30,618 nt of DNA from a virus (taxonomy: Duplodnaviria > Heunggongvirae > Uroviricota > Caudoviricetes). Shown here one piece after another: positions 3,620-19,028 of the stretch (positions are counted from its first letter, which is position 1; every line of letters starts with the position of its first letter). The stretch lies in the IMG/VR virus record IMGVR_UViG_2563366903_000024, one strand, 5' to 3'. The notes under the pieces are model-generated. The model was not told the DNA's origin. It saw only the letters and a program-made list of their open reading frames with translations, and searched no databases. Both the position numbers and the translations under genes were made by a program.

Positions 3620-4087
3620 TTATTTCAGGCACTGAGTGCTGATATATTCCTGTGCCCCTTCCAGCTGCTTCTGCATCGTCATCAACCGCTCTCTGAGGGT
3701 GAAATAATCCCGTTCAGCGGTGTCTGCCAGTCGGGGGCCGGTTGCATTATCCACGCCGGAGGTGCCGGTGGCTTCACGCACGGTACCGGAGCAGGTGGCG
3801 TTGATCCGCAGGCGCTTACGACCAGCAGCAACATCAGCACGCAGAGTTTCATTTTCAGCTCTCGCATCGGCTAATTCCCTCGAGTATTTTGCATCGAGCG
3901 CAGCAACATCGCGCTGGCGCACCTGCATATCAGTAATGGTGGCGTTTGCCAGCTCCAGCTCTCTGGCTTTTTTATCGCGCTGCGCTTTGTAGGTGATGGC
4001 GTTATCGCGGTAATGGTCTGTTGCCAGCCACAGCGCACCACAGCCACCCGCCAGGACAATAATCACCACACGCAGAACACGGCTCAT
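3620..4087 (-). CDS. Rz: Rz i-spanin (inner-membrane spanin)
   Basis: 155-aa protein with an N-terminal TM segment and strong resemblance to lambda Rz (…[16 protein letters not shown]…DVAALDAKY…[15 protein letters not shown]…MQKQLEG…). Confidence 0.9.
3682..3867 (-). CDS. Rz1: Rz1 o-spanin lipoprotein, embedded in Rz in another frame
   Basis: 61-aa ORF wholly inside Rz. Lipobox VVSAC and proline-rich body ([30 protein letters not shown]), closely like lambda Rz1. Confidence 0.85.
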
Positions 4088-4094
4088 CTCTCTT

Positions 4095-4229
4095 TCACCC
4101 CACCAGTCCCGATAACGTCAGGACTCGCCAGGCGGTGGAAAAGAAAATGGCAACCAGCATTAGTGAAAATGAAATGCCGACAATTACACAGAGGATCTTC
4201 GCCAGCGTTATGAGTTTGTCTGACATGCT
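4095..4229 (-). CDS. Small single-pass membrane protein (44 aa) between endolysin and Rz
   Basis: ATG at 4229 preceded by SD AGGGAGGA. Product [35 protein letters not shown]… has one hydrophobic helix. Stop lies 8 nt before the Rz start. Confidence 0.35.
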
Positions 4230-4240
4230 TAATCCTCCCT

Positions 4241-4423
4241 TCACGATTTCAACGCAATGACCAGTTTTGCCAGCCCATACAGCATCGGGGACACAGCAAC
4301 ACCGACCGCCACCCACTTAATGGCAAAAGCCAGTGCTCTGCTGATGTCATCAGTTACAGGCGCTTTCAGTTCAAGGCCGTTTTTCATAGTCAACCTCAAC
4401 AGAATTCGTTTATACTTTTCCAT
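4241..4423 (-). CDS. Small hypothetical protein (60 aa) with C-terminal hydrophobic segment
   Basis: Internal ATG of track ORF 4241..4456, preceded by AGGGAG. Product MEKYKRILLRLTMKNGLELKAPVTDDISRALAFAIKWVAVGVAVSPMLYGLAKLVIALKS. Start is uncertain. Confidence 0.3.
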   Translation of the reverse strand: MEKYKRILLRLTMKNGLELKAPVTDDISRALAFAIKWVAVGVAVSPMLYGLAKLVIALKS

Positions 4424-4462
4424 GTTCTCCCTTGCCTTATCCAAGGTCAGAAACACAAAACC

Positions 4463-4492
4463 CCGCTTGCAGCCAACAAACGGGGTTTTTAC
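4463..4492. terminator. Hairpin flanked by T/A-rich runs on both strands, between endolysin and the downstream small ORFs
   Basis: aaCCCCGcttgcagccaacaaaCGGGGtt with T-rich flank on the plus strand and on the reverse complement. Stem is short and loop long, so this is weak. Confidence 0.3.
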
Positions 4493-4579
4493 TTTTATTC
4501 ACTTAGTTTTTGTCAGTTCGCAGGATTTCGTGTTATCCGTCCGTGTGAGCAAACCGCATTTTTCAGCAAAATATTCTGC

Positions 4580-5113
4580 TTATCTGTCAATTCCCCAGCA
4601 CGCCAGCGCGCTCTCCTGGTCACGCCGCGATACCTGCCCGTAACAGTTATTTGAGCGATTCCGACAGTCCCTGCCGCCGTCATATATCCATCGGCGGATT
4701 TCAGCACATCCACCTTTCCGGTCTCCGGCGTTCAGTTTCCGGTAAAACGTTGAGGTGAAGCATTTCGAAGGCCCGATGTTGTACGGACAGAATGACGCGA
4801 TCCCCGCTTTCTGGGGTTCAGTCAGTGGCAATTTGATGTTTTTCTCCACCCATGCCAGCGCCTTATCACGTTCAATGGCATTAACCTGAGCGCATTTTTC
4901 CTTCGACAACTTCATGCCCGGGACGACAGGTTTGCCATCCACCATGATGGCACCACGGCAGATGGTCCAGATCCCCGCACCATCACGGTATGCCGTGGTG
5001 TGGTTACCTTCTTTTTCGTCAAGAAACTGGTCGAGGATTTCAGGCGCAGAAGCACCTGTGGCAATCAGCGCCAGAACGGCTACCGATAAACCATAGTGGA
5101 GTTTCCTGCTCAT
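4580..5113 (-). CDS. R: SAR endolysin (phage lysozyme with N-terminal signal-anchor-release domain)
   Basis: 177-aa protein with an N-terminal hydrophobic Gly/Ala-rich segment (LSVAVLALIATGASAP) followed by a lysozyme body. Sits directly downstream of the pinholin, as in phage 21 and the DLP12 RrrD type. Confidence 0.85.
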   Translation of the reverse strand: MSRKLHYGLSVAVLALIATGASAPEILDQFLDEKEGNHTTAYRDGAGIWTICRGAIMVDGKPVVPGMKLSKEKCAQVNAIERDKALAWVEKNIKLPLTEPQKAGIASFCPYNIGPSKCFTSTFYRKLNAGDRKGGCAEIRRWIYDGGRDCRNRSNNCYGQVSRRDQESALACWGIDR

Positions 5114-8215: not shown

Positions 8216-8221
8216 GCATGT

Positions 8222-8250
8222 AAAAAGGCCCCTGCGATGAGGGGCCTGAG
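8222..8250 (-). terminator. Rho-independent terminator downstream of the RM specificity gene
   Basis: 8-bp stem AGGCCCCT / AGGGGCCT with 6-nt loop, followed on the minus strand by TTTTTAC. Confidence 0.45.
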
Positions 8251-8618
8251 AGTATTACCTGGTTTCAGTTAACTGCATAGTGCCGGGTGCCTCCCGGTGA
8301 GTTCAGCCCGGTGCCACCGAACCCGCGTCTTTCACATTGCCTGTGACATTAAAAATGCCAGCCCGCACCAGCCGCCCCGCCGCTGAGGGGGATTCACCAT
8401 GCGTTGCGATTTTTAACAAATTCACCGCCAGCCAGACAATCATCAACTTGCTGAATTGTGAGGTATTTAAAAATTTCCCCGATTAACTGATACCCTGCTA
8501 ACCACCTGTTGTTTTCTTTTTCAGCAACAAAAAAGCCCGCTCATCGGCGGATTCGGCTGCGTGGCAATGTAACCATTCTTATCATGATATGAGGATTTTT
8601 ACGATTGTAAAATGTTTT

Positions 8619-12105: not shown

Positions 12106-12261
12106 TTACTTCTCAGATTCGTAGTCTACGAAGACAGCGACCTCCGTCTGGCCGGTTCGGATTCGTACCTCGCAGAAGTCTTTCCTCGTTACCAGTGCTA
12201 TCACTACGACGGTAATACAGATGACGATCAGGGCGATTAACATCGCCTTTTGCTGCTTCAT
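12106..12261 (-). CDS. hok: Hok/Gef-family type I toxin (small membrane peptide)
   Basis: Unlisted 51-aa ORF MKQQKAMLIALIVICITVVVIALVTRKDFCEVRIRTGQTEVAVFVDYESEK, very like E. coli Gef/HokC. SD AAGGAG before the ATG. Confidence 0.8.
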   Translation of the reverse strand: MKQQKAMLIALIVICITVVVIALVTRKDFCEVRIRTGQTEVAVFVDYESEK

Positions 12262-12431
12262 AGCCTACTTCTCCTTGCCTTTCGGCACGTAAGAGGCTAA
12301 CCTAAGTTTGTAAGTCATAGATTTGGCCTCAGATTAATGTTAAGCGTCCTGCAAGACGCGTAATGTTAACTGGGGCTTTTCTCTGTCTGCCTTACGGCTG
12401 CATGCCCGAGGCAGACAGCCTCAAGCACCCG

Positions 12432-13748: not shown

Positions 13749-13940
13749 CTATCCGGAGTGACAATTAAATCTTGCTCGACGCCTTAGCCACCGGATATCC
13801 CACAGGTGAGCCGTATAGTTGAAGGTTTTAACATCAGATTCTTTGGGGACTGGCCTGGGTTTATTTCGGGAGCGTTTGGTTGGAAGGTAATTGCAGTTTT
13901 CACAGACGATATCGGTGATGCTTCGTCGCTGTCGTCTCAT
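13749..13940 (-). CDS. ninE: NinE-like protein
   Basis: 63-aa [57 protein letters not shown]…, like lambda NinE. Confidence 0.75.
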
Positions 13941-14347
13941 TCATACCTCCTGTCGGTAAATCTGACACCCTGATCCACAGCCCAGGAAGTTGTGTACTCA
14001 ATCAGGCTTGCCATACGCTTCACGCTCATTTGCGCACTGCTTTCGCGGATATTGACGTATTCACCTTCAAGACCTGGCAAAACATCAGCTTCCTGTTTTG
14101 TCGCCACGGCATGACCGCTGATTAACAAAACTTTCCACTGTTCTGGTTTTAGCCACCTGCCGCACCACTTAACCTGGCGGGATATATCAGCGACCATCGC
14201 GTGAAATTTTGCATTTTGAGCGAGATTACGCTTGTAATCGGTGATACGGATCGTAACGGGTTTGTCTTTATCGAGAGTTGTTGCAAGGATGGCGTTAATG
14301 GCGAATTGTTGCTGCTGCTTACTTCGGAGGAAGATAGTCTGGTTCAT
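13937..14347 (-). CDS. ninB: NinB / Orf-family recombination protein
   Basis: 136-aa protein with NinB-like core (…[32 protein letters not shown]…). 4-nt overlap with ninE. Confidence 0.7.
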
Positions 14348-14401: not shown

Positions 14402-15094
14402 TCAGAATTCAAATTGTCTTGCTCTTAGTTGCGCCAGCATACTTCTGGCCCTGTGCACCGTATAGTTGGCGGGATCAAGTTTTGCTGCTTCGCGGAGCAA
14501 TGTGTCGCGAGTCCGGTTGGTTATATGACGAGTTTCGTAGGCCAGATCAAACAGCTTTCCATAGTAATCAGAGTTCAGTTCTCTCATGACGGGGTATAGC
14601 TGTTTACTGAGTTGTTGTGCTTTTTCCATCCAGAGTTGCATGTAACAAAGGAGGATGATTTCCTCGGCTGTGAATTGTGGCTGAATCTGCGGCTGCTGTT
14701 CGGTTGGTGCTGTTTTTCCCTGGCTGAAATAGCAGTCTTCCAGTTTTTCGAACACTTCCCACGCCTGATCGGTTTCTAGCATTTTGGCGTGACGGGCTGC
14801 GCCTCGTTCTGTCCAGAGGATGAGGGAGCGGGTTTTTGGGGAAATTTGTAACCCTCTTAAAGATGGTTGCAAATTTTGCGACTCGTTTAAAACTAGTCGC
14901 AAATTTCTGAGTTCATCACCAACAGCTTTAAAGAAGTGCTTTCCCTCAATAAACCGAGATTTATTTTCATGGTGATTCTGCTGTATACGGATTGTTTCTG
15001 TTCCATAAAGGCGGGCAAGCAACTCAGTTGTGATTACCGGAATCTGGTTATAGGTAACAGGGGAAAGGTTTTTGACAGAGATTTGAACAGTCAT
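14402..15094 (-). CDS. Antirepressor-like protein (ORF6N/KilA-type N-terminal domain)
   Basis: 230-aa protein whose N-terminus (…VTYNQIPVITTELLARLYGTE…NKSRFIEGKHFF…) fits the ORF6N antirepressor pattern. Confidence 0.55.
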   Translation of the reverse strand: MTVQISVKNLSPVTYNQIPVITTELLARLYGTETIRIQQNHHENKSRFIEGKHFFKAVGDELRNLRLVLNESQNLQPSLRGLQISPKTRSLILWTERGAARHAKMLETDQAWEVFEKLEDCYFSQGKTAPTEQQPQIQPQFTAEEIILLCYMQLWMEKAQQLSKQLYPVMRELNSDYYGKLFDLAYETRHITNRTRDTLLREAAKLDPANYTVHRARSMLAQLRARQFEF

Positions 15095-15261
15095 AACGAC
15101 CTCGCGTTTCGATAATTTTTACCTCACCACCTTCAGGTGCTAATCATCGTGGTGGCGAACTGTGCGGGGTTAGCACTACCGGTCGAAACATCCGGCGAGC
15201 CTTTCGGCTCCCCCACACAGCCCGCCATAAATCGCGAATGTGACTGTGCCTAGCGCATAAA

Positions 15262-15286
15262 AAAACCGCCAGCGCGGTTATGCACC
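15262..15286 (-). terminator. Hairpin plus T-run on the minus strand
   Basis: AACCGC-cag-GCGGTT stem followed on the minus strand by TTTTTTT. Which transcript it ends is unclear. Confidence 0.3.
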
Positions 15287-15411
15287 GTTTCGATATCCGG
15301 GGTGCTAATCCCGACGCCAGATTTTGCTGGCGTGCGAAGAATATAATCCCGGATATGTGTTGTCGTCAACATACCTTGAATGTATATAACAAATTTGTTA
15401 TGTTTACTCTC

Positions 15412-15741
15412 ATGAACTACATTATCGAATACTACAGTGACGAGGTTGAAGCTGAGATCCTTTCTCTTCCTGAGACCTTACAAGCCCGGTACATTCGGTA
15501 CACGGAGAAAATGCGTATTTACGGAGCTAATCTTGGTTCCCCGCATACAGAGGCATTTGGCGACGGTTTGTTTGAAATCCGCCTTAAGGGCTCGGAAGGC
15601 ATAGGGCGTGTTTTTTACTGCACGCTAAAAGGAAAGCGAATCATTATGTTGCATAGCTTTGTAAAGAAAACGCAAAAAACTCCACCTGCCGAGCTTAGAA
15701 AAGCTGAAACCAGAATGAAGGAGGTTAAGCATGACTGGTAA
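15412..15741 (+). CDS. Type II toxin, HigB/RelE-like addiction-module killer family
   Basis: MNYIIEYYSDEVEAEILSLPETLQARYIRYTEKMRIYGANLGSPHTEAFGDGLFEIRLKGSEGIGRVFY…IIMLHSFVKKTQKTPPAELRKAE fits the phage-derived killer-protein family. Toxin-first order and 11-nt overlap with the next gene. Start (15412 vs 15400) uncertain; no clear SD. Confidence 0.65.
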   Translation: MNYIIEYYSDEVEAEILSLPETLQARYIRYTEKMRIYGANLGSPHTEAFGDGLFEIRLKGSEGIGRVFYCTLKGKRIIMLHSFVKKTQKTPPAELRKAETRMKEVKHDW

Positions 15742-16039
15742 ACGTACCCCACCTACCATGACACACGATGAAATGGTAGAAAAAATGTTGTCTAACCCCG
15801 CAGTAAAAGCAGAATACGACGCCATCGCCGACGAGTTCGCACTGCTTGATGAAATGCTGGCAGCACGAAAAGAAGCTGGCTTAACCCAGGCTGAAGTTGC
15901 CGAACGTATGGGAACAAAAGCGACTGCGATCACCAGAATGGAAAGCAATCTTGCATCAGGTACAAGCGGCCCATCATTTGCCACACTGAAAAAATTCGCC
16001 CGTGCTACAGGGAAAAAACTCCAGATCCGCTTCGTTTAA
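15731..16039 (+). CDS. HTH (XRE-like) antitoxin partner, HigA-like
   Basis: 102-aa protein with HTH segment (LTQAEVAERMGTKATAITRME) directly after and overlapping the toxin gene. Confidence 0.65.
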   Translation: MTGKRTPPTMTHDEMVEKMLSNPAVKAEYDAIADEFALLDEMLAARKEAGLTQAEVAERMGTKATAITRMESNLASGTSGPSFATLKKFARATGKKLQIRFV

Positions 16040-16093
16040 CTCTCCACTACCGCGCCGTCATTCTGGCGGCGCTTTACCCCAGAGAAATATCAA

Positions 16094-16339
16094 TCACCGG
16101 ATTACCACATCCCACTCCGGCTCCTGCCATCTCAAATCCGGTGAATCATTTCTCTCAGGAATAACCATTACGTCCTTTTCCCTTCGCTCCCTTTCTATCG
16201 CCATCACAGCCAATGCTGTAACCATGATGTATTTTTGTTCGTCGGTTCCTGTTTCATAACGACGCATGAGGGTAAACTCGGGGCGATCAGTAACCTCAAT
16301 GATTTCGTTAATTTCTTTAATTTCGCGAGGAATATCCAT
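16094..16339 (-). CDS. Hypothetical small acidic protein (81 aa)
   Basis: ATG at 16339 preceded by GGAG. Fills the gap between the TA pair and the zinc-ribbon gene; its start codon overlaps the divergent start of the next gene within CCATGG. Confidence 0.35.
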   Translation of the reverse strand: MDIPREIKEINEIIEVTDRPEFTLMRRYETGTDEQKYIMVTALAVMAIERERREKDVMVIPERNDSPDLRWQEPEWDVVIR

Positions 16340-17012
16340 GGGTTTAGTCTCCTTTGATATCACATGCCCGCACTGTTTAAAAGAGCGAGCTGTTATTGAG
16401 GCATTTGCCGAAAAACAAATTGAAAAAACACCTTTTTTTAACGTCGCTTTTGTATGCAGAAGTTGTCATCGAGGAGGTGTTGCTATTGTTGAAATCCCAT
16501 CAGACCACTATCACGGTCCCATGGCGGAAAGCCAGAAAAAAGACCTCGATATTCTGATTTCAGGAAATAGCCAGTACCGTTTCCGCAAGATCTATCCTGT
16601 GGTCAAAAAAATTACCGCACCAGAATATACGCCCCCGGTTGCAGACCGTACTTTTGTTGAGGCAAAAGAGGATTTACAGAGGAGGCGGTACGACACAGTG
16701 GTTATTCTTTGTCGCAGAGTCCTCGATATCTCCACGAAAAAACTGCTCGGCGATGAAGCAGGAAAAGAATCGCTGTCGCAACGTATTCAGATGATTTACA
16801 AAAAAGGCCTGATCACTGAACAGATGAAGGAATGGGCTCATATTGTACGAATTGATGCCAATAAAGCAGTTCATACAGATGAAGTTTTCACACCAATTGA
16901 GGCAAGCCAGATCCTGAGTTTTACCGAAATGTTTTTAGTCTACGCCTTCACTCTGCCTGCAATGGTGGAAGCCAGACGTGAACAAAAAAGATCAGATTCA
17001 GCCTCTATATGA
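16338..17012 (+). CDS. Zinc-ribbon protein with C-terminal helical domain resembling DUF4145
   Basis: 224-aa protein with SD GAGGAA. N-terminal CPHC…(26)…CRSC zinc-ribbon pattern. C-terminal region (VVILCRRVLDISTKKLLG…IQMIYKKGLITEQMKEWAHIVRIDANKAVHTDE) matches my recollection of the DUF4145 pattern. Confidence 0.5.
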   Translation: MGLVSFDITCPHCLKERAVIEAFAEKQIEKTPFFNVAFVCRSCHRGGVAIVEIPSDHYHGPMAESQKKDLDILISGNSQYRFRKIYPVVKKITAPEYTPPVADRTFVEAKEDLQRRRYDTVVILCRRVLDISTKKLLGDEAGKESLSQRIQMIYKKGLITEQMKEWAHIVRIDANKAVHTDEVFTPIEASQILSFTEMFLVYAFTLPAMVEARREQKRSDSASI

Positions 17013-17044
17013 ATCACTTTTCTGAACACGTAAGCCCCCGTCAT

Positions 17045-17476
17045 TCACGACGGGGAGAACATCAATCCCTCTGCACTCCCTCGCCAGAATGCCAGCACAC
17101 GCTGCATCGTTTCGCTGTTACGGCACTCGCGACAAATTGTGTTGTAGCGTCTGTCGTAGCGCCGTATTTCCCCATCTGGTAATGCCCGGATAAGGTCTGG
17201 ATCAACGACAACCGGTTTCTTCGACTTTGCCCTTGAGAGTTTTTTGCGGGCATTTTGCCAGTCCTTACGAGCCTGTTCAGACGGGAATACTCCGTAACCG
17301 GAATTGTAAACATCACCACTGGCGGCCAGCTCCATGCATAAACGACCGACAGACGCATGACTGACACCAATTTCATCCGATAACTGCCGAATCGTGCCTC
17401 GTCCGTTAAGGCGTACGAATTCCACGATCAGCCCCTTAATTTTTTCCCGCTCTTCTGGTGTAAATGCTCTTGTCAT
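17045..17476 (-). CDS. Hypothetical protein with winged-helix-like segment
   Basis: Start at ATG 17476 with SD GGAGGTG (MTRAFTPEEREKIKGLIVEF…). Function unknown. Confidence 0.45.
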   Translation of the reverse strand: MTRAFTPEEREKIKGLIVEFVRLNGRGTIRQLSDEIGVSHASVGRLCMELAASGDVYNSGYGVFPSEQARKDWQNARKKLSRAKSKKPVVVDPDLIRALPDGEIRRYDRRYNTICRECRNSETMQRVLAFWRGSAEGLMFSPS

Positions 17477-17491
17477 AAGCACCTCCGGAGA

Positions 17492-18262
17492 TCACTTTGT
17501 TGTCGGTGAATGAACCGGAATATCAGCAATCGAACTGAAAATATCCCGGTGTTTATTCAGCTCCCGCAGCGCGGCGCAGACTCGCTCCCACTTCTGAACA
17601 TCACTTTTCGCCCTGCGCAGCGCCAGGTTTGCCCTGCGCAGGGACGGAAAAATCAGCTCATCTGCTTGCGTTTCGGTAAACGATGGCAACGACTGCACAA
17701 TGTCCGCCACAGTTTCTGTTTTAATTTCTTCCTGTGTTGCGGCTTCCCGGACTGGTAACGCAGCACCTGCTGGCTGAGGAAAGGCCTTACCATCATTTTC
17801 CGTTACCGGCGCGGTTTTCGGATCTGCTGGTAAATTACCCCCCGGCATGCAGTAACGAAATTTACCGTTCTGATTAACGCGTGCCAGCCGCCCCGTTGCG
17901 GTTACCACCGCCAGCGTGGAAGCAACCTTGCGAGTGGTAACTCCGAACTTACCCGCTATTTCTTCACAGGTTTTAGCACCATCCTGACCGATAAACTCAA
18001 TCATCATGTCTGCGGTAACTTTTGGAGCAACCTCTTCGGTTACCACATCCAGCGCTTCAGGTTGTAGTGCCTGCCCTTCGGTTACCCCGGCTTCACCTTC
18101 GACAGCCAGAAACCAGGTGTGACCCGTTTTATCAACAACGCCATTTTTTTTGAGTTCCCACAGTTCGTTGAGAACTTCTTCACGGCTGATATCAAGCCGC
18201 GCCGCCAGTTCAACAGAATTGGCTTTTCCCATCGCTTTCAGTGCATGCAATACGGTTTCCAT
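17492..18262 (-). CDS. Hypothetical prophage protein with N-terminal winged-helix-like domain
   Basis: 256-aa ORF (METVLHALKAMGKANSVELAARLDISREEVLNELWELKKNG…) between the replication genes and the nin region. Confidence 0.5.
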   Translation of the reverse strand: METVLHALKAMGKANSVELAARLDISREEVLNELWELKKNGVVDKTGHTWFLAVEGEAGVTEGQALQPEALDVVTEEVAPKVTADMMIEFIGQDGAKTCEEIAGKFGVTTRKVASTLAVVTATGRLARVNQNGKFRYCMPGGNLPADPKTAPVTENDGKAFPQPAGAALPVREAATQEEIKTETVADIVQSLPSFTETQADELIFPSLRRANLALRRAKSDVQKWERVCAALRELNKHRDIFSSIADIPVHSPTTK

Positions 18263-18287: not shown

Positions 18288-19028
18288 TCACATACCCTGA
18301 CGTCCAACGTTTGACCGCCAGCTCTCCCAGTTAAAATTCACCCAACGACCACCGTTCATGGTCATCCGGTCCATAATCCTCTCACCAAGAAGCGTGCTCA
18401 TTGCGGCATGATTCAGGTTTGTCAGCATCCCGACACTGCGCAGTGATGCCGTCCGGCGGTCAACAATCTGGTGCAGTACCACCTGCTCGTTTTTCGTCTC
18501 ACGCTGGATGCCAATTTCGTCAAGAACCAGGAGGTCCACTTCGCACAGTTCACGCAAAAATTTTTCCCCTGACAGTCCGTCGTCATAGCTGGCATGTAAC
18601 GCGCTCATCACATCCGCCACGGTGACCACTATCACGGATTTACCGGCCTTCAGCAGACGATTACCCACAGCCGCCGCCAGATGATTTTTTCCGGTTCCCG
18701 GATTCCCGCTGAACACGAAGTTTGTATAACCGGTCATCAATTCATCGGCAATGGATTTCGCCTGGCTCAGAGCATGGCGCTGACCGTCGTTCTGCACCCG
18801 GTAGTTCCCGAATGAGCACTTCCTGTGAAGCGGCTGGATGCCCGCACGGTTCAGGATTTTTTCAACCCGCGCCTGATGATTCAGGCGGTTAATTTCCTCG
18901 CTGCGCTTACGGCCCTCAGCCAGTTGCCATTCCCGCCATTCGTCGGTCGTCCGGAACGGTGCTGCCACGTGCGGTGGTGCCAGACGGCGCACCCGTTCAA
19001 GAATCCCTCCAGTCGAAATGTTTTTCAT
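18288..19028 (-). CDS. DnaC-like replicative helicase loader (IstB-like ATPase)
   Basis: 246-aa protein with Walker A (FSGNPGTGKNHLAAAVG) and Walker B (DLLVLDEIG), directly downstream of the O-like initiator. Confidence 0.85.
   Translation of the reverse strand: MKNISTGGILERVRRLAPPHVAAPFRTTDEWREWQLAEGRKRSEEINRLNHQARVEKILNRAGIQPLHRKCSFGNYRVQNDGQRHALSQAKSIADELMTGYTNFVFSGNPGTGKNHLAAAVGNRLLKAGKSVIVVTVADVMSALHASYDDGLSGEKFLRELCEVDLLVLDEIGIQRETKNEQVVLHQIVDRRTASLRSVGMLTNLNHAAMSTLLGERIMDRMTMNGGRWVNFNWESWRSNVGRQGM

Follow-up and report, generated by a model that had tools for sequence, protein, structure and literature searches.

Two accessory modules, a HigBA-class toxin-antitoxin cassette and a probable RAZR-like zinc-ribbon HEPN gene, in the nin region of a lambdoid Escherichia coli prophage

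The window analysed here is the whole 30,618-nucleotide (nt) stretch of the IMG/VR record IMGVR_UViG_2563366903_000024 (Caudoviricetes), and positions refer to it unless another locus is named. The locus is the nin region of a lambdoid E. coli prophage, with replication genes on one side and ninB on the other. Two unrelated, independently exchanged accessory modules probably lie side by side here, both antisense to the early-right operon. The first is likely to be a type II toxin-antitoxin (TA) operon of the HigBA class, and the second to contain a 224-amino acid (aa) protein built like RAZR, a ribonuclease (RNase) that defends E. coli against phages. The toxin, the antitoxin and the 224-aa gene are all on the plus strand, between the DUF977 and the Ant/NinB genes. 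A first-pass annotation had described them as three plus-strand genes flanked by minus-strand phage genes, and all features it gave were found in the sequence. The three genes are not contiguous: a minus-strand gene of 81 aa separates the TA pair from the DUF4145 gene.

The 224-aa protein is encoded at 16338-17012 on the plus strand (Shine-Dalgarno sequence GAGGA at 16327-16331) and is WP_032144013.1 in its RefSeq twins. Its assignment to DUF4145, made in the first-pass annotation from a motif pattern, was correct: the Pfam family PF13643 matches with an E-value of 3.9e-9 and 36.9 bits (Pfam cut-off 23.1). DUF4145 is a HEPN RNase family, sometimes with zinc-ribbon fusions (Anantharaman et al.). 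Conservation was read from 34 homologues with 37-71% identity. Among the residues invariant in all of them are C10, C13, C40 and C43, which form the Cys4 core of an N-terminal zinc ribbon (16365-16469), and R171, N175 and H179, which form the predicted HEPN catalytic motif R171-IDA-N175-KAV-H179 (16848-16874). The zinc-ribbon part gives weak profile matches to RPB9-type ribbons such as 1QYP. In the AlphaFold (AF2) model (predicted local distance difference test, pLDDT, 90.1) the N-terminal part, beta-rich around both CxxC pairs, has a helix and two strands in addition; it is followed by a proline-rich linker and a helical C-terminal domain. Both marks of the HEPN superfamily, the four-helix up-down fold and the R-x(n)-H motif, are present. 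The best Foldseek matches of the model in the Protein Data Bank (PDB) are weak HEPN matches, 7AE6 and 5YEP. The family is large: 206 clusters at 50% identity were found at E <= 1e-30, the majority aligned over almost the full length of the profile, and 1411 at E <= 1e-10.

RAZR, formerly PD-T7-4, is an E. coli protein with a Cys4 zinc-finger domain and a DUF4145/HEPN RNase domain (Zhang et al., Nature 2026, PMC13017515; PDB 9Y9C). Its activators are phage proteins of ring shape (T7-type portal, SECphi27 Gp77), on which it assembles into a 24-mer that encloses the ring; the activated protein cleaves RNA non-specifically and the infection is aborted (PMC13017515). R146 and H154 are essential for defence, the zinc-finger domain sets specificity, and no antitoxin is required (PMC13017515). 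The structures 7AE6 and 5YEP were used for comparison in that paper too.

A search with the family profile of the 224-aa protein reaches the RAZR chain 9Y9C_OA, and the alignment superimposes the R..N...H motif. For a profile-profile comparison the RAZR family was rebuilt from the 9Y9C_OA fragment, and hhalign of the two families gave a probability of 90.6% (E-value 1.3e-6, 109 columns). BLASTP against a full-length Klebsiella RAZR homologue gave 27% identity over 104 aa (E-value 8e-6). The two proteins are collinear in their CPxC and CxxC pairs, linker prolines and HEPN motif. C10/C13/C40/C43 align with CPYC...CLCC of the Klebsiella protein, so the N-terminal Cys4 is shared, and R171, N175 and H179 align with the R146...H154 motif of RAZR, giving a DUF4145 HEPN domain with the catalytic arginine and histidine. 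Linker residues P87, P95 and P99 align with RAZR linker prolines, and the remaining linker differs. Distant homology to RAZR is demonstrated, and it is seen in the linker and HEPN part. This link was reached via the family profile only; a single-sequence PDB search and a Foldseek search did not lead to it, and Foldseek did not return the RAZR entry.

Both proteins are single polypeptides of similar size (211 aa in RAZR, 224 aa in the window) with the same order of Cys4 zinc ribbon, proline-containing linker and DUF4145/HEPN domain, and they share an R-x3-N-x3-H motif (R146/H154 in RAZR, R171/H179 in the window). There are also clear differences. The zinc-finger domain of the window protein is approximately 35 residues longer, the additional part lying after the second CxxC and comprising the extra helix and two strands. 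The C-terminal helix-loop-helix tail of RAZR is missing. In a sequence-level comparison the residues of RAZR higher-order oligomerisation (D179, D180, R184; V21) were not recovered: the salt-bridge positions D179, D180 and R184 between RAZR dimers correspond to hydrophobic Y202, A203 and L206 in the window protein (motif VYAFTLP). Activation through a ring-templated 24-mer therefore cannot be assumed. The setting differs as well, since the window gene lies in a lambdoid nin region head-to-head with a small gene, whereas the Klebsiella RAZR homologue follows an integrase gene on the same strand. Because of these differences the 224-aa family was classed as a sister family of RAZR and not as a member of PD-T7-4; it probably works alike. 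The zinc-ribbon-HEPN gene is a distant RAZR relative, and at this level, that of a divergent sister family, it acquires a connection to a mechanism that has been characterised.

By analogy with RAZR, the 224-aa protein is a candidate abortive-infection RNase in which the N-terminal Cys4 zinc ribbon would be the sensor and the C-terminal DUF4145/HEPN domain the RNase, with R171, N175 and H179 in its active site. The protein would be made in the lysogen and be inactive alone. Its zinc-ribbon domain would bind a protein of a superinfecting phage, and the binding would set the HEPN dimers in an active arrangement. Non-specific RNA cleavage would then stop translation and the infection would be aborted. 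The first-pass annotation had stated that such modules often act in phage exclusion. For the DUF4145 gene this idea gains support from the HEPN RNase domain and the RAZR/PD-T7-4 architecture; for the TA pair a comparable role is conceivable.

Several results weigh against the RAZR-like assignment, in addition to the longer zinc finger, the missing tail and the replaced inter-dimer residues. PADLOC models run on the region called no system with confidence. The PD-T7-4 model (PDLC04109) matches the 224-aa protein with an E-value of 0.0022 and 15.5 bits over residues 85-183 only, which is below any PD-T7-4 calling threshold, and the protein is not a member of that family by this model. Fifteen of the 34 family members match the model, the best with an E-value of 2.8e-7. 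The DUF4145/HEPN assignment came from the profile searches and the predicted structure, and the single-sequence PDB search gave no match. Residues 173-177 (16854-16868), in the catalytic loop, are the sole low-confidence stretch of the AF2 model (pLDDT <50). A loop of this kind between R171 and H179 would fit an active site that stays disordered until the protein dimerises or is activated. Upstream of the HEPN gene no convincing sigma-70 promoter could be identified; when the window and nine distant loci were scanned, with standard as well as lenient settings, no promoter was conserved in position. Finally, the protein belongs to phrog_1305 in the PHROGs database, which is labelled 'DNA binding protein'.

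This label agrees with another reading, in which the 224-aa protein would be a regulatory or nucleic-acid-binding protein for the phage's own cycle and its HEPN motif would not serve abortive infection. Zinc ribbons are often nucleic-acid binders, and the gene has a constant position beside the replication genes in many lambdoid prophages. It is, however, antisense to the early operon and absent from most related phages, including Shiga toxin (Stx) 2a phages. The strictly invariant HEPN arginine, asparagine and histidine argue for catalysis, and the closest characterised relative, RAZR, is a defence RNase. A function restricted to the phage's own cycle is consequently considered very improbable.

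DS-38 (HEP2, WP_001313577.1) is a single-gene zinc-finger and HEPN defence protein of E. coli that came from DefensePredictor (PMC13092281). It has in common with the window gene that one accessory gene of E. coli encodes both a zinc finger and a HEPN domain. According to its authors it aligns with PD-T7-4 in the HEPN domain only, and they judged it to act unlike PD-T7-4 (PMC13092281), which is a further caution against carrying the RAZR mechanism over to the window protein. Identity with DS-38 was rejected because the accessions differ: WP_001313577.1, for which a 1101-bp region was cloned, as opposed to WP_032144013.1. Also compared were the HEPN toxins of HEPN-MNT systems (5YEP, 7AE2/7AE6) and prophage HEPN defences, HepS of Gifsy-1 (9OIK) among them. 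The window protein has no MNT partner and another sensor domain, and its motif has Rx7H spacing where the canonical one is Rx4-6H.

If the 224-aa protein defends as predicted, there would be a second family, large and still without annotation, in which RAZR-type sensing by a zinc finger is coupled to a HEPN RNase. The PADLOC models fail to call this family in the window, so it is missed by current tools. With its enlarged zinc-finger domain and its different putative oligomer interface it would also serve as a test of the RAZR mechanism: either activation on a ring template is general, or one plan of two domains has been adapted to more than one kind of trigger.

The HEPN gene does not stand alone. 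The 81-aa gene (16339-16094, minus strand; Shine-Dalgarno AAGGAG at 16354-16349) runs in the direction of the phage early-right operon and starts head-to-head with the HEPN gene. Both starts fall within the palindrome CCATGG (16336-16341), as the first-pass annotation had noticed: the plus-strand ATG occupies 16338-16340 and the minus-strand ATG 16339-16337, so that 2 nt of the CATG core are common to both. This 2-nt overlap is also present in the RefSeq annotation of an E. coli prophage with 99.7% identity. The good Shine-Dalgarno sequence of each start falls within the first codons of the other gene. The 81-aa protein matches phrog_8371 with an E-value of 1.4e-55, and this is its sole family match; there was none in Pfam, NCBIfam or PADLOC, and Foldseek found no fold match (all E > 2). 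AF2 predicts a three-helix core at residues 1-58 (pLDDT 85-91 for residues 1-50) and a disordered tail. An imperfect 30-nt inverted repeat (16074-16103 and 16135-16164; 77% complementary, arms 31 nt apart) spans the 3' end of this gene.

The arrangement is deeply conserved: 16 loci of other genera were collected whose HEPN homologues have 36-53% identity, and in 10 of them a minus-strand gene of 58-73 aa starts on the same CATG. These 10 loci (L005, L006, L007, L008, L012, L025, L026, L028, L029 and L030) belong to Enterobacter, Symbiopectobacterium, Tatumella, Rosenbergiella, Photorhabdus, Serratia, Proteus, Yersinia (two loci) and Paraburkholderia. A word-indexed protein search with the 81-aa protein returns close E. 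coli homologues only, and the distant ones were read from the loci; all five that were compared with phrog_8371 match it (E-values 8e-11 to 3e-4). Most of these 10 pairs have O/P or DnaB genes on one side and ninB on the other; wherever the neighbourhood was checked, ninB was directly next to the small gene. HEPN homologues in prophages occupy this same antisense position between O/P or DnaB genes and ninB.

The exceptions to CATG pairing are L009, L010, L016, L011, L023 and L013, the last being a degenerate copy. L009, L010 and L016 contain a 212-aa zinc-ribbon-HEPN subfamily (match at 4001-4639) which adjoins the small terminase gene and has no head-to-head small gene. In Pantoea (L023) the HEPN homologue is found between an HNH gene and the lysis cassette. 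With the nin region, the small-terminase side and the HNH/lysis site, at least three different positions in prophages are thus on record for the gene. That the small gene and the HEPN gene always go together was rejected, as each is found without the other.

What stops the abortive-infection enzyme of a prophage from aborting the prophage's own induction is a testable regulatory question raised by the start overlap. The two mRNAs would be complementary across both ribosome-binding sites, and pR transcription would run antisense through the HEPN gene; a shut-off on induction, amounting to self-immunity, was therefore proposed. The lysogen would express the HEPN gene only. On induction, early transcription from pR would pass antisense through the whole HEPN gene and end in the 81-aa gene, whose mRNA 5' end would be complementary to that of the HEPN mRNA, including both Shine-Dalgarno sites and both starts within the CATG. 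The RNase would thereby be silenced at the RNA level. The three-helix phrog_8371 protein might also act as a neutraliser of the RNase, or mask the trigger protein of the phage itself. Such a built-in switch, by which an abortive-infection RNase could be kept in the prophage and yet leave the lytic cycle unharmed, is offered as a speculative and rather unlikely extension of the RAZR-like reading. If true, the defence gene would have a phage-encoded partner dedicated to self-immunity, in an arrangement conserved from Enterobacterales to Burkholderiales.

The same pairing could instead be taken as a self-contained toxin and neutraliser, or a lysogeny/lysis switch, that serves prophage maintenance or the phage's own development and not defence. 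This would accommodate the start overlap with a phrog_8371 homologue in 10 of the 16 distant loci, from E. coli to Paraburkholderia, as well as the joint movement of both genes between phage backbones, and small partners are common for HEPN toxins (Anantharaman et al.). On the other hand, the small gene is present without the HEPN gene in L018 and approximately 12 E. coli genomes, and the HEPN family without the small gene in L009, L010, L016 and L023. RAZR needs no antitoxin (PMC13017515), and a divergent orientation is atypical of type II TA pairs. Taken together these observations make a dedicated toxin-neutraliser pair improbable, and the candidate abortive-infection RNase remains the preferred reading of the HEPN gene.

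The second module, with the 81-aa gene and the zinc-ribbon-HEPN gene, was delimited by blastn to 16046-17033. L004 and L019 carry the segment from 16042/16046 to 17033 at 96% identity, with other genes beside it (BRO-N, Roi). The two genes move as one unit between phage backbones. The module is present in 36 of 5426 complete E. coli genomes, and approximately 12 of these 5426 have the 81-aa gene alone, without the HEPN gene. In L018 only the 81-aa gene is kept and homology breaks exactly at the CATG; in place of the HEPN gene is an unrelated 166-aa minus-strand open reading frame (ORF) with no family match. The deposited phages in which the HEPN gene was found are PhiR5_2, PhiR12_3, the Shigella Stx phages 75/02 and POCJ13, a Klebsiella phage, Burkholderia phages and phage Cartapus. 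The G+C content of the module is 43-45%, compared with 50-54% in the flanking replication genes.

The first module has its own boundaries. Homology with L002, L003, L018, L019 and L020 (blastn) ends at 15369-15371 and returns at 16042-16051, and the whole swapped segment is an exchangeable TA cassette at 15371-16045, with its genes on the plus strand. Between the same junctions L003 has a RelE/ParE toxin with HigA, L002 and the Stx2a phage L020 have ParD, a small lipoprotein-like ORF and an orphan HigA, and L019 has a RelE-like protein with HTH_3. L004 contains a diverged Gp49 toxin (73% identical) with a helix-turn-helix (HTH) partner, followed by an orphan HigA. The slot of L018, which is phage phiSTEC1589-Stx1c, contains TumE and an HVO_A0114-type partner. 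At least five TA families were found in this one slot. The TA pair thus sits in a recombination slot whose TA family changes from one related phage to the next. The 3' end of the window antitoxin gene (window 15971-16041) survives as a 71-nt relic, 94-96% identical, at 3216-3286 in L002 and 3179-3249 in L020, that is, in an O22:H8 prophage and in Stx2a-converting phages, where it adjoins the downstream orphan HigA. This relic points to successive cassette replacements.

In L018 the slot spans 2347-2995, with TumE (PF20126, E-value 2e-14) and an HVO_A0114-type winged HTH protein; both are annotated in the record as hypothetical proteins only.

These junctions bear on the first-pass suggestion of an inserted accessory island. 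The accessory status was upheld by the slot exchange and by the presence of the second module in only 36 of 5426 genomes; the single island was not, and two independently exchanged modules take its place. Nor are these genes a core shared by all related prophages, since the TA segment is replaced and the second module is rare. A cooperating defence island or operon of the three plus-strand genes, with the TA pair regulating or feeding into the HEPN protein, would explain their common strand. Because the HEPN gene has no good promoter and the hairpin after the antitoxin gene has a weak U tract only, read-through from the TA promoter is conceivable. But the two segments have separate sharp exchange junctions, the HEPN module is found with five TA families and, in other genera, without TA genes directly beside ninB, and the slot is filled in L018 and L020, which both lack the HEPN gene. 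One joint island is accordingly regarded as a very remote prospect, and two neighbouring modules as the probable arrangement.

The hairpin in question lies at the junction of the two modules (16052-16072). It is GC-rich, has a predicted folding energy of -19.1 kcal/mol (z -5.07) and is followed by UUUACCCC. A 26-nt stretch with the hairpin is kept in the Stx2a phage L020, which is without the second module (blastn). The hairpin is a possible weak terminator of the TA operon.

The TA pair itself fits the first-pass description as HigB/HigA-like. The toxin (109 aa, Gp49/HigB type of the RelE/ParE superfamily) runs from the ATG at 15412 to the stop at 15741, and the antitoxin (102 aa) from 15731 to 16039, both on the plus strand. 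The genes overlap by 11 nt and the antitoxin has a strong Shine-Dalgarno sequence, AAGGAGG, at 15718-15724. The toxin matches Pfam Gp49 (PF05973) with an E-value of 4.6e-27 and 94 bits over profile positions 2-90 of 90, phrog_2523 in PHROGs (2.6e-42) and HigB in the solved complex 6AF3 (chain A, 7e-5). The antitoxin matches HTH_3 (3.6e-11) and HigA of the same complex (6AF3_B, 1.4e-3); its layout is an N-terminal extension followed by a C-terminal Xre HTH at residues 44-98. A RelE/ParE-superfamily toxin with an adjacent HTH antitoxin, in toxin-first order and with coupled genes, is what defines type II TA systems of the HigBA class, and by sequence the pair is an ordinary module of this class in a cassette hotspot.

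Toxin-first order and the Gp49/RelE fold of the toxin are common to the pair and Streptococcus pneumoniae HigBA (6AF3/6AF4), and so is the antitoxin layout, in which a toxin-binding segment at the N-terminus precedes a C-terminal Xre HTH. The pair differs from 6AF3 in its low identity and in being carried in a phage cassette slot. Vibrio cholerae HigB2/HigA2 is a further system with this layout. The toxin is predicted to act as an endonuclease on mRNA in a ribosome-dependent manner, and the antitoxin would restrain it by binding through its N-terminal extension.

An alternative toxin start at 15511 (76 aa), annotated by PGAP in L001 (16262-16492), was rejected in favour of 15412. The Gp49 profile is covered from position 2, and the 73% identical copy in L004 conserves the full 109 aa and is annotated so. 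The internal start would remove the first 33 residues of the toxin, all of which are inside the Gp49 profile coverage.

A candidate promoter of the TA operon, TTGAAT-17-TATGTT with a TG-extended -10, is located at 15376-15404 on the plus strand. It was found in our own lenient scan, matches 8 of 12 consensus positions and is under the threshold of the standard scan; it would predict a leaderless or near-leaderless toxin mRNA. Inside this weak promoter, and within the cassette, is a perfect 16-bp palindrome, ATAACAAATTTGTTAT (15386-15401), 11 nt 5' of the toxin ATG. It is a plausible candidate operator for the HTH antitoxin, which would repress the operon, probably at this site.

As for a contribution of the TA pair to phage exclusion, some points count against it. 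To our knowledge most TA modules have no demonstrated defence role. In PADLOC the toxin gives a partial match only, to positions 233-283 of the 293-position NsnC model (Menshen), and the antitoxin only generic HTH matches (capH). For the multi-gene PADLOC systems (Menshen NsnC, CapH-regulated) full-length matches to all components were not found.

It is quite possible that the pair is a mere addiction or stabilisation cassette, or decaying selfish cargo, with no part in phage exclusion. The orphan antitoxins and the 71-nt relic in other phages, which show turnover and decay in the slot, fit this, as does the fact that PADLOC calls no defence system. Both TA genes are nevertheless intact and of full length in the window, and the slot adjoins a likely defence gene. 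Prophage TA modules have also repeatedly been found to abort infections.

The slot resembles the P2/P4 defence hotspots of temperate phages (Vassallo et al. 2022, PMC9519451) in being a fixed site where unrelated cassettes interchange between conserved flanks. It differs from them in its place, with the c4/isrK-ant promoter of lambdoid phages on one side and their nin genes on the other, and in its TA modules in the sampled loci. A description of a TA slot on the c4/isrK-ant side was not found in the literature searched, which did not cover Brenes & Laub 2025. In lambdoid and Stx phages this slot beside the c4/isrK-ant control region documents TA turnover and is a convenient place to seek new cargo in medically relevant Stx phages.

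The left neighbour of the cassette is a P1/P7-type antirepressor control region (15148-15369, minus strand) upstream of Ant and outside the cassette. Rfam places here c4-a1b1, with the a1/b1 targets of c4 (15294-15346), IsrK (15259-15333, terminator 15264-15287) and the C4 antisense RNA (15148-15232), all on the minus strand (RF01695 75.1 bits, RF01394 75.8 bits, RF03163 46.9 bits). These elements control the downstream Ant gene. The standard scan found a strong promoter-like site, TTGACG-18-TATATT, at 15369-15340 on the minus strand, and with the homology break at 15369-15371 the TA slot starts directly upstream of it, at the -35 box. The promoter and terminator left of the cassette were initially read as a nin-region terminator; this was discarded for c4/IsrK antisense-RNA control of Ant after the Rfam search.

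Ant (ORF6N + P22_AR_C) is encoded at 14402-15094 and NinB at 13937-14347. On the right flank are a DUF977/Ren-like gene (17045-17482), DUF1627 (17492-18262) and a DnaC-like loader (18288-19028). All five are on the minus strand. The 99.7% identical RefSeq copy (L001) is a prophage of E. coli UPEC-245U integrated at ynfG, with the minus-strand order cII, O-like, DnaC-like loader, DUF1627, DUF977/Ren-like, NinB, NinE, RusA, NinH and Q. The phage record PhiR5_2, with 99.6% identity, is of the same prophage family.

Elsewhere in the prophage Rfam detected two further minus-strand RNAs, listed at 12256-12430 / 8216-8432. These are the sok antitoxin RNA (118 bits), the presence of which points to a hok/sok type I TA locus in the prophage, and the small RNA STnc100 (149 bits).

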